A stretch of 11,276 bases of DNA, from the IMG/VR virus record IMGVR_UViG_2548876964_000017, positions 1 through 11,276 of that record. One strand, 5' to 3'. Every line of letters starts with the position of its first letter. Position 1 is the stretch's first letter. This document shows, piece by piece, positions 6,001 to 9,000 of this stretch. The DNA comes from a virus (lineage: Duplodnaviria; Heunggongvirae; Uroviricota; Caudoviricetes). Position numbers: made by a program.

Positions 6001-9000
6001 CATCGATCGTACAGAACAGATAGTGAAACCAGCCATACTGAGGCGCACGAAAACGCCTCCCCTGCTTAATTTCCGGGTCGGCTTCAGAATTGTGGGATTT
6101 TATGTGTTGTGTCATCGGATTCTCCGGTGACAGCAGGTGTCAGTTGTTCAGGCTGACTGCGCGAATTGTAAGGCAATACGCCGGAATGTACAAACAGAAA
6201 ACCCGTCAGTAAGACGGGCTTAACAAGCAGGGGCGGTTACTTTAATAATTTCAGTGCCTTTACATCAACTTCAACACTGCTCAGGTCTTTATCAATTTCA
6301 CCCTCAATTCTTACTTTGTCTTTCGGAGAAACATTCTGCCCGGCCCATACGCTGTCATCAATATCCGTGACAATTGTCCCGCTATTGTCACGAAACTCAT
6401 AACGTTCATCACCCACTTTTTTAACGATGCTCCCTTCAAGGATAACCCATGCATCATCCTTCAGTTCTTTTGCCTGCGCTACTGTTGAACGCTCTGCTTC
6501 TGGCCCCTGGAAACCACCCTGCTGTGCAAAAGCGCCAAAAGACACACCGGAAATAAGTGCTGCAATCAATACCTTTTTCATTCATAGTCCTCTTTCAGAG
6601 ATGAACATTCAAACAGCATTTTCAGTATGGTAAAGCGCGGGTGCGTTGAGGATGCCTGACACATCAGAGGTGGCGGGAGATTACTCCCCCGCCTGGTCTC
6701 TTACTTCTCAGATTCGTAGTCTACGAAGACAGCGACCTCCGTCTGACCGGTTCGGATTCGCACCTCGCAGAGGTCTTTCCTCGTTACCAGTGCCGTCACT
6801 ATGACGGTTAAACAGATGACGATCAGGGCGATTAACATCGCCTTTTGCTGCTTCATAGCCTGCTTCTCCTTGCCTTTCGGCACGTAAGAGGCTAACCTAC
6901 ATGTGTTCAGCATGGATTGAGCCTCAGATTAATGTTAAGCGTCTTGCAGGACGCGTAATGTTAACTGGGGCTTTTCTCTATCTGCCGTTGGTGTTCATGC
7001 CCGAGGCAGATAGCCTCAAGCACCCGCTGCAATTCTACTTAACTATCCTTTTCCCGCAAACCGTTTTTATCCCCAGCGGCAAATCGAATACTCCACCAGC
7101 GCCACCGCCATCGCAATTCCTACCGTTGTGAATGCTTCAGGCCAGGTCATTGATTCACCTCCTGCGGCGGTTCTGGTAGCGACATCCAGTGGGTTGCTTG
7201 CCTAAGATCATTACCCGGACTAACTGCTATACCTCCGCGCCGGAACGTGCCTCCGAGATAGCGTGCGGAATATATTAATGGCCCAGCCTCGCTATCGATA
7301 TTCATCGAAATAAGCACGTTCTGGCTCTTTTCAGGCATTCGCTCAGTACAGCTTATCCAGCCATCCAGAGTTATCGGAGATCTGGTTGACGTTTCCGAGA
7401 TTTCCCGAAAATTGTTGGTTGACGAATTCTTATTTTCCCGAAAGTTTCCGGCCTGAAGCATGGCGACGCGGCAGGCGTTCCAGCCATCAGCATATGTTTT
7501 AGTTACACCGTCGAGATGGCAGGTAAGCAAATCCATTTCATCAGGCACTACCATTGCTATCGGCTCTGCTTCCAGTGATGCCAGCGCGATACGAAACACA
7601 TTAGCCAGCAGGCTGTCTGAAGACTTGTTATCGTGCGCCGAGTCGCTCAGGAAGCCTGTGATGTATGATTTAATCTCCGCGCGTTCTCTGGTAATAGTGC
7701 TCATATCAGTTTTCCTTATACGGATTAATTTTATTGTGCAGTGCGCTGAATGATTCCCATGTCACATCGGTATATAGCTCAATAACTGGTTCAAATGTCC
7801 TTCCAATTATCCAGACCAGTAATAGCGGGGATATCGGTATCATCAACACTATAAACAGAATGAAAAACAGAAACTCTGTTGTTCTGCTCTTTCGTGGGTA
7901 ATTTTTTTCTAAATAATGTTTCATTTCTTACCGCCCTTTCGGGCGGCCTCCTGATGTTCTGAGGGTGCAGGAATCCCTCCGGTTAAGGATTTAATAAAAA
8001 TCGTTTCTGATTTAAATCTTCAGTATTTAGTTGTTAGTTGGTTTATCGCCTTTATGCTTCAGCCTTATTTCGCAACCAGACACAAACCGGGCCATCTTCC
8101 GTATCATGAATGGAACCAATAAACCAGCCATCGCCCTCTGGTCGTTCCGGTTCCCATGCAGAAATATCAGCATCACACGCATCAAGGTCAGCACATCCTT
8201 CATCTCTGAAGCAGAGGACGTATTGAAGATTATTTTCCTCCATCCAGGCGTTAAACTCTTCCGTTGAAATATATTCCCGACCATCACAGAATTTTTCATA
8301 TTCAGGATGTGTCCAGTAGCCATATCCGTCACGAACTACCGGCATTTCTTTAATTTTACTCACTGTTAACCTCCTGCAACGCTACACGATACGCCTTCTT
8401 TATCCACGCCTTACTGCCATATAATTTCGTCTTCATAATAAACACACCTGCACGACTCGCCGATATCCCCGGACAGGTTAACAGCACAGCATCCACCACA
8501 CGGTTATGCTTCCGAAACTCCATTACAGTACTGCTGATAACCACCTGCCCCACCGGGCCGTAATCCTGATACAGGATTTTCACGCAGACACCCTCCTGTC
8601 GAAATAAACGTAGTTATTCACTATGCGCAGCGGCATGCCTAATTTTCTGGCAATTTCCCTTCTTTGCATGCCTCTCTGATGCAGTTGCCGCGCCAGCTCA
8701 ATATCACGCTGAGAATATTTTGCCGACGGGTGAAAATCACCACGTAACATCATGCTGATGCCCAGCTCCCGTGCCTTCGTTCTCACTGCCGCTTCAGTTC
8801 GTCCGATAAGTGCGCCAACGCTTTTTACCTTCATCGTTCCCGCACACTGCCGGAGTATCATGATTTCCGCCCGGCACCACGTCTTCCACCCACTCACCGC
8901 TGCTGTTCTCTGGTGGCGGTAATATCCCGGAGAATATCCCGGCACTTGTTCAGCTCCCGCAGCGCGGCGCAGACTCGCTCCCACTTCTGAACCTGACCTT

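Follow-up and report, generated by a model that had tools for sequence, protein, structure and literature searches.

The stretch of DNA analysed here, 11,276 nucleotides (nt) long and referred to below as the window (positions 1 to 11,276 of IMG/VR record IMGVR_UViG_2548876964_000017, a virus of the Caudoviricetes), contains a hok-family toxin locus that we read, with a probability of roughly 0.9, as an intact copy of the hokW-mokW-sokW type I toxin-antitoxin system, set within the early (nin) region of an Escherichia coli lambdoid prophage. The full locus extends from ~7060, at the hok promoter, as far as the fbi box at 6639, with the mRNA on the minus strand. There is no novelty in the system itself: hokW-sokW is already known by name and has been characterised experimentally in Shiga-toxin phages of E. 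coli, the name dating from phage annotations of the 1999 era and the demonstration of a working type I toxin-antitoxin from 2021. The window copy has little value as a discovery, and its practical value lies elsewhere, in a gap in current annotation, in a strand trap set by an Rfam label, and in the coordinates of an RNA switch.

An earlier note on this DNA, made from the sequence alone, had recognised a hok-family toxin, a sok-like promoter, a mok-like leader open reading frame (ORF) and an inverted repeat in the leader. It was right on all four: the segment 6600-7060 (461 nt) is 99.1% identical to the annotated mokW/hokW/sokW regions of phage 933W (AF125520) and of VT2-Sakai/Sp5 (AP000422). 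The range it had assigned to the locus, 6701-7012, was too short, leaving the 5' tac element and the fbi box outside (Table 1). The same segment occurs at 100% identity in many genomes of Shiga toxin-producing E. coli (serogroups O26, O111, O145 and O157), and 526 E. coli records hold copies at 99% identity or more.

The toxin matches Pfam PF01848 HOK_GEF across the full 42-position profile (E=1.1e-22; 79.8 bits, cut-off 22) and PHROG 251, "MokW-like host killing" (9.8e-33), so that the 51-residue Hok/Gef assignment made from the sequence stands. Alignment with HokC and R1-type Hok shows that the conserved positions C, TR, LCE and YE are retained. The hokW DNA of the window is identical to hokW of 933W, and RefSeq labels identical copies "Hok/Gef family protein" (WP_000813258.1). 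The upstream in-frame ATG at 6913, offered earlier as a possible leader start, does open a 70-codon ORF with a Shine-Dalgarno (SD) sequence of its own, and the corresponding ORF in 933W is annotated as mokW. To set the locus beside its relatives, one genome of each species was scanned; this gave 80 Hok loci across Enterobacterales, which reduce to 29-32 distinct leaders or 3' untranslated regions (UTRs). The frame of mok relative to hok varies across this family. The idea that an in-frame mok is unusual was considered and rejected, for mokC is also in frame, as is mok in 11 of the 31 family leaders examined.

In the covariance-model search that the earlier note had suggested, the leader matches the whole length of Rfam model RF01794, "sok" (positions 1-157 of 157), scoring 113.5 bits where the gathering score is 59 (E=8.4e-26). 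Because this match lies on the hok strand and ends at the hok AUG, RF01794 models the leader of the hok mRNA, not the Sok RNA. The orientation is read off the Rfam match itself, as a literature search on the point found unrelated papers only. Taken literally, the label "sok" assigns the antitoxin to the wrong strand. The hokW transcription start is taken to be 7025, from position 1 of the model. The hok -10 is placed at 7037..7032 because nearly all of the 29 distinct loci have a TAnnAT hexamer (mostly TATAAT) 5-6 nt ahead of the mRNA 5' end.

On the opposite strand, the TTGCCT-17-TAACCT promoter proposed from the sequence has both hexamers present, and its -10 is the very one mutated in a published promoter-less sokW construct. 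Mapping the oligonucleotides of Takada et al. (2021, PMC8621323) on the window gives exact matches for both northern probes and all Sp5 cloning primers, barring deliberate promoter mutations and one single-nucleotide polymorphism (SNP) in the 3' UTR. The promoter-less primer, YO-421, carries changes at 6893, 6895, 6898 and 6899, thereby altering three of the six TAACCT bases, and the sokW clone used for complementation in trans spans window positions 6853..7007. Since three of the YO-421 mutations fall in TAACCT and the mutant loses antitoxin activity, TTGCCT/TAACCT is an experimentally supported sokW promoter. Most of the 32 family leaders likewise have a TAnnnT -10 at a spacing of 17-18 nt from the -35.

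A short RNA of ~60 nt antisense to the region upstream of hok had been predicted. The antisense placement holds, with a start at 6905; the length does not, being 71 nt. The RNA, whose hairpin is terminator-like, folds with a minimum free energy (MFE) of -30.0 kcal/mol (z = -5.0) and is complementary to nt 51-121 of the hokW mRNA, covering ucb, the mok SD and the mok AUG. Its 14-nt 5' tail is complementary to nt 108-121, including the target loop and the mok AUG. The annotated sokC of K-12 and sokW are identical over their first 9 nt, and each overlaps the start of mok by 9 nt.

Only four single-base differences separate the window from 933W: at 7045, in the spacer of the hok promoter; at 7028, position -3 relative to the mRNA start; at 6948, in the loop of the Sok hairpin; and at 6693, at the base of the 3' hairpin, where the window allele G6693 gains one G-C pair (fold energy of nt 326-360, -19.8 kcal/mol vs -16.2 kcal/mol in 933W). 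All four lie outside coding sequence and outside the hexamers of both promoters. These SNPs were considered as disabling changes and rejected as such, from their positions in the pairwise alignment and from refolding of the 3' hairpin. The hok and mok coding sequences, the sok promoter hexamers, the Sok start and 5' tail, tac and fbi are all identical in 933W/Sp5 and the window. The earlier note had left it open whether the module works, and had missed both the name of the locus and its prior characterisation. Toxicity and its neutralisation by sokW have been shown for the Sp5 copy, whose hok, mok, promoter and Sok 5' tail are identical, and the window copy is almost certainly functional. It is very improbable that the locus is an inactive remnant, its toxin never made since some regulatory element is broken, as in several chromosomal hok copies of K-12. 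Such decay does occur among relatives: the K-12-type hokD copies, which match only from query position 161, lack promoter, leader and sok; one hokC locus has a divergent 3' UTR; in K-12 the annotated end of an IS186 lies 19 nt past the hokC stop codon; and relatives of the window prophage carry frameshifted genes. Here, by contrast, every element is present and in register, and the differences from 933W are confined to the four positions given above.

Table 1. Features of the hokW locus and, in the last rows, of its surroundings in the window. nt, position in the mRNA (nt 1 = 7025)
Feature	Position	Strand	Details
Putative hokW -35, TTTGCG	7055..7060	-	17 nt upstream of -10; placed from spacing only, weak consensus match
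Putative hokW -10, TAGAAT	7032..7037	-	6 nt upstream of mRNA 5' end
hokW mRNA 5' leader	7025..6851	-	Rfam RF01794 "sok"
tac element	7014..7025	-	GGGUGCUUGAGG; mRNA 5' end; predicted to pair with fbi (full-length MFE) or ucb (nt 1-140 MFE)
Metastable 5' hairpin of nascent RNA	6997..7023	-	Predicted; nt 3-13 with nt 19-29; role from PMC9841398
Inverted-repeat helix	6978..7013	-	9 bp, CUAUCUGCC/GGCAGAUAG, 7013..7005 with 6986..6978; extends tac stem
ucb, anti-SD of mok, AAGCCCC	6967..6973	-	Predicted to pair with mok SD (closed fold, AGCC:GGCU) or tac (open fold)
Sok target hairpin, open form	6888..6925	-	Predicted; mok SD GAGGCU with dcb AGCCUC (6893..6888); mok AUG in upper stem; 7-nt loop CUGAACA
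mokW leader ORF	6913..6701	-	70 codons, in frame with hokW; SD GAGG 6925..6922, 8 nt upstream of ATG
hokW toxin gene	6856..6701	-	51 aa, MKQQKAMLIALIVICLTVIVTALVTRKDLCEVRIRTGQTEVAVFVDYESEK; SD AAGGAG at 6871..6866
3' stabiliser hairpin	6672..6693	-	GGCGGGGGA/UCUCCCGCC; presumed 3' end of processed mRNA; role from PMC9841398
fbi box	6639..6651	-	CCUCAACGCACCC; complementary to tac with one bulged C
sokW promoter -35, TTGCCT	6870-6875	+	Overlaps hok SD on other strand; TTG invariant, TTGCCT in 19 of 32 leaders at same place
sokW promoter -10, TAACCT	6893-6898	+	17 nt from -35; overlaps dcb on other strand
sokW RNA	6905..6975	+	71 nt: 14-nt single-stranded 5' tail, long imperfect hairpin, UUUU tail; coordinates transferred from 933W annotation
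tRNA gene	1712..1640	-	Annotated tRNA-Ile in relative
tRNA genes	1629..1556 and 1539..1466	-	Both annotated tRNA-Arg in relative
Small RNA STnc100	1386..1196	-	Full-length match, 138 bits; SASA-family esterase gene next

Elements of the hokW mRNA and their comparison across relatives

The definitions of tac, fbi, ucb, dcb and the hairpins follow Le Rhun et al. (2022, PMC9841398), and the RNA folded is the 396-nt transcript 7025..6630. The earlier note held that a lack of fbi, tac and ucb equivalents would count against the locus; equivalents of these are present, on folding and on alignment with relatives. In the MFE fold of the 396-nt RNA (the closed form), nt 1-12 (tac) pair with nt 375-387 (fbi), and AGCC of ucb pairs with GGCU in the region of the mok SD. 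The tac-fbi duplex is predicted at -21.1 kcal/mol, which is the best site for tac in the whole window on either strand, barring its trivial self-complement.

In the relatives, GCUUGAGG at the mRNA 5' end is invariant (32 leaders), and a box complementary to a locus's own 5' end sits 45-59 nt past the stop codon across the family. The two covary, with a U:A to C:G change, as GGGUGC/GCACCC in the clade of gef, hokD and hokW, GGCGC/GCGCC in the R1-type clade, and GGGCGC/GCGCCC in a Pantoea locus. A column-based count of tac-fbi pairs on a joined 5'/3' alignment was dropped, MAFFT having put the two clades' fbi boxes into separate columns, and an alignment-free duplex test was used instead. In this test the 5' end of each locus against its own 3' UTR averages -18.4 kcal/mol, compared with values of -8.1 to -11.9 for four controls (DNA from upstream, coding DNA, the reverse complement, and shuffles). 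The own pair beats the controls in 28-29 of 29 loci (Wilcoxon p <= 4e-6), and giving one clade the 5' ends of the other weakens the duplex by about 4 kcal/mol in either direction.

The leader inverted repeat described earlier, TATCTGCC (6979-6986) with GGCAGATA (7005-7012), is present, and its helix is one pair longer than had been said, at 9 bp. Folded alone it has z = -5.2 against shuffles. Across 32 distinct relatives 99.0% of the cells are paired, with compensatory changes at four of the nine pairs, a result equalled by none of 500 shuffles. The metastable 5' hairpin (MFE -18.8 kcal/mol for nt 1-30) is predicted to form in nascent RNA of 30 to 50 nt; its core pairs are kept in 29-32 of the 32 relatives (74.7% of cells paired), and its outer pairs are clade-specific. 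Because nt 13-21 are common to both, the inverted-repeat helix and the metastable hairpin are mutually exclusive, and since the latter uses bases of one arm of the repeat, the repeat would represent one of the alternative conformations of an RNA switch. The hairpin corresponds to the metastable structure known from R1.

The unconstrained MFE fold of nt 1-140 (the open form; -51.3 kcal/mol, z = -4.5) consists of the tac/ucb stem with the inverted repeat, a long hairpin complementing the Sok hairpin, and the hairpin of the mok SD with dcb, and it reproduces the helices of the RF01794 leader model. AGCCCC of ucb is invariant in the family. The Sok target hairpin taken alone has z = -2.2, and the Sok 5' tail is complementary to its loop and to the flank. 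The overlap between the sok -10 and dcb has likewise been noted for R1 by Le Rhun et al. (PMC9841398).

The 3' stabiliser hairpin folds with an MFE of -17.5 kcal/mol (z = -5.3). Per-sequence folding finds a stem of at least 7 bp, 4-10 nt past the stop codon, in 29 of 29 distinct relatives, built from 19 different arm sequences. A column-based count for this hairpin was no better than shuffles in the register of the window (59.8% paired), and rose to 79.7% in the +1 register; we attribute this weak count to the register of the alignment, and per-sequence folding was used for that reason.

By sequence comparison, then, compensatory changes among the 29-32 distinct relatives are seen in tac-fbi, in the inverted-repeat helix and in the hairpin at the 3' end. 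For hokW itself we infer the tac/fbi/ucb/dcb switch, the coupling to mok and the 3' processing from sequence, folding and comparison together. These switch elements were outside the scope of the hokW paper, and they now have exact coordinates for mutational tests.

Proposed mode of action and role in the prophage

Takada et al. (2021, PMC8621323) made the published experiments on the Sp5 copy. Expression of HokW from pBAD arrests growth. The Sp5 locus with its own sokW promoter is harmless, mutation of the sokW -10 brings back toxicity, and sokW supplied in trans rescues partly. In a RecA-dependent manner, mitomycin C treatment leads to loss of sokW and to the appearance of HokW in the inner membrane. 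Deletion of hokW-sokW halves phage release, which is to say that the locus gives a twofold gain.

The hokW-mokW-sokW system most likely works as does hok/sok of plasmid R1. A weak promoter would give a stable mRNA starting at 7025, whose nascent 5' end would be held in the metastable hairpin. In the full-length RNA, pairing of tac with fbi would close the molecule and place ucb over the mok ribosome-binding site, permitting neither translation nor Sok binding. Removal of the fbi region back to the 6693..6672 hairpin would then allow tac to pair with ucb and present the mok start in a hairpin. The short-lived 71-nt SokW would pair with the mok start region, blocking translation of mok and, through coupling, of hok, and marking the duplex for RNase III. 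Once SokW is gone, HokW would be made and inserted into the inner membrane, ending in growth arrest or cell death. In the window prophage the role is most likely to help lysis after induction, and this is the least certain step of the scheme.

Several points weigh against this picture. All of the experiments behind it were made on the Sp5 copy. RNase III and Hfq proved only partly required (PMC8621323). Lysis help, the only role tested, was shown in an inducible Stx2 phage. The sokW hexamers match the sigma-70 consensus poorly (7 of 12 positions), and generic promoter and terminator scans of 6500-7200 called nothing, neither the sok promoter nor the Sok terminator. We do not count the scan against the promoter, because a -10 matching at 3 of 6 positions fails the 4-of-6 rule of the scan, nor against the terminator, because the Sok hairpin is imperfect and longer than the model of the scan allows; the weight given to TTGCCT/TAACCT comes from conservation in place and from the published experiment, not from consensus match. 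Five of the seven tac/ucb pairs never vary in the 32 relatives, which is conservation without covariation, and with the pairs of tac/ucb and of mok SD, ucb and dcb nearly invariant, the comparison neither supports nor contradicts them. Many genomes have up to eight near-identical Sok regions, and copies may protect each other. Finally, nothing resembling a terminator lies from fbi (6639) to where the next gene starts (6581); on the minus strand such a site first occurs at 6221..6199, past the ygiW-like gene that follows hokW. Because no terminator directly follows fbi, the full-length 3' end, and with it slow 3' trimming in the R1 manner, is ill-defined for hokW, and the R1 picture may not carry over unchanged.

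The same mechanism could serve other ends. If the main role were addiction, cells that lose the prophage would be killed (post-segregational killing) and the prophage thereby stabilised. This is the classical role of R1 hok/sok, the 933W annotation reads "prophage maintenance", and the pairing of a stable mRNA with an unstable antisense RNA fits it (PMC9841398). An integrated prophage, however, is not lost through mis-segregation, and deletion of hokW-sokW from Sp5 has no effect on growth absent induction (PMC8621323). Sok regions are moreover widespread and multi-copy, so that Sok from other copies would probably rescue a cell losing one prophage, and we regard addiction as an unlikely main role.

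Defence against other phages is a further candidate: a lytic phage would shut off transcription, SokW would decay, and HokW would kill the cell and abort the infection. The hok/sok design does respond to transcription shut-off, and high-copy R1 hok/sok lowered the plating and the plaque size of T4 (cited in PMC8621323). The only hokW phenotype tested, though, is positive for its own phage, and a PADLOC scan gave no model matching Hok, Mok or the neighbouring proteins. Defence as the main role seems unlikely, and help with lysis after induction is the role we favour for hokW-sokW.

The ygiW-like gene, the 1-kb cassette and the prophage

In R1-type loci a terminator is understood to follow fbi directly, a detail of the R1 mechanism. 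None is found there in the window; because this lack is common to hokW itself, it does not take the window copy out of the hok/sok family. The 3' UTRs of R1-type loci have a conserved UUUAUGAAGGGG motif after fbi, with which the terminator hairpin of the R1 mRNA begins; hokW is without the motif. A tentative and on balance improbable idea is that hokW-type loci are read through the ygiW-like gene, which encodes a periplasmic OB-fold protein, as far as the terminator at 6221..6199. In that case the toxin mRNA would be bicistronic, about 830 nt long, with an internal fbi, and would be activated by an endonucleolytic cut rather than by slow 3' trimming. The ygiW-like protein would be co-expressed, and a 27-codon ORF upstream might be a third member of the cassette.

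That cassette is a segment of about 1 kb (7165..6190) comprising the small ORF, hokW/sokW, the ygiW-like BOF gene and the terminator. It is common to the window and 933W, at 97.1% identity, and differs in its setting: in 933W, an Stx2 phage, it lies at the far right end of the prophage beside a large gene that we take to be a tail-fibre gene, whereas the window copy lies in the nin region. Because of this different placement, the hokW-ygiW unit behaves like a small cassette that is mobile. At its left junction, a stretch of 38 nt (7154-7191) has a further match elsewhere in the 933W segment.

The 27-codon ORF (7150..7067, minus strand) is unannotated and hydrophobic, with the sequence MTWPEAFTTVGIAMAVALVEYSICRWG. 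It has a GGAGGTG SD sequence 5 nt upstream, and it overlaps the DUF551 stop codon in an ATGA. The frame is open, with the same start context, in 933W, in O26 RM10386 and in three other loci. Its stretch is the most diverged part of the cassette relative to 933W, and most of the changes are non-synonymous; only the window allele has V20E, which falls in the hydrophobic core. No Pfam or PHROG match was found for it. From its sequence, the product could be a small membrane protein of the cassette.

The window as a whole is the early-right part of a lambdoid prophage, its best whole-window match being O145:H28 RM12581 (99.3%). In order along the minus strand are replication genes, DUF1627, small ORFs, DUF4014, DUF551, hokW, the ygiW-like OB-fold (BOF) gene, DUF968, RusA, the Q antiterminator, a CPBP protease, a helix-turn-helix protein, three tRNAs, STnc100 and a SASA-family carbohydrate esterase. 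The region downstream of the Q antiterminator is the site of stx in Stx phages; there is no stx gene within the window.

The Sok region is found, at 90% identity or more, in 4035 of 5426 complete E. coli genomes, in up to eight places per genome. RefSeq has nothing annotated under the Sok region in any of the genomes listed, and the two gene tables inspected have no mok entry. Since RefSeq labels only the Hok/Gef protein, automated annotation hides the regulatory half of the system in about three quarters of complete E. coli genomes.

Related hok loci

The system of plasmid R1 is the type for hok/sok, and an R1-like sequence is among the loci compared. It has the same order of elements and the same predicted switch as hokW, and in both the Sok promoter overlaps the hok SD and dcb. 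The two differ in that mok is mostly in the +1 frame in R1-type loci and in frame in hokW, and in that the 5' end is GGCGC vs GGGUGC, with fbi changed to match. The toxins are 44% identical (PMC8621323).

Closer to hokW is hokC (gef)-mokC-sokC of K-12, whose Hok is 80% identical to HokW and whose mok is in frame as in the window. Intact copies of hokC have the GGGUGC/GCACCC type of tac-fbi, as does hokW, and the 9 nt at the start of sokC are the same. The hokC leader is about 20 nt shorter, and in hokW the Sok hairpin is made longer by an insertion of 16 nt. The hokD (relF) copies of non-K-12 chromosomes belong to the same clade as hokW by 5' end and fbi type, and are about 92-95% identical to it over the whole 400 nt in many strains (about 88% on plasmids). 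The hokD of K-12 type encodes a protein whose C-terminus differs from that of HokW.

In one hokC locus (L025) the 3' UTR departs from that of an intact hokC (L026) about 20 nt past the stop codon, and its best 5'-3' duplex, at -13.3 kcal/mol, lies at an atypical distance. Together with the K-12-type hokD copies, L025 provides natural negative controls for the RNA elements.

Eight loci (L012, L024, L032, L046, L047, L048, L067 and L083), which include the R1-like sequence mentioned above (L046), are enterobacterial-type hok genes on short contigs labelled as non-Enterobacterales (Veillonella, Acinetobacter idrijaensis, Xanthomonas pisi, Ferruginibacter, Streptomyces, Oscillibacter, Dysgonomonas and Vagococcus). 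Rather than true occurrences beyond Enterobacterales, these contigs look like contamination or mis-binning in the public assemblies; several of the loci have exactly the sequence of E. coli or R1-type copies.

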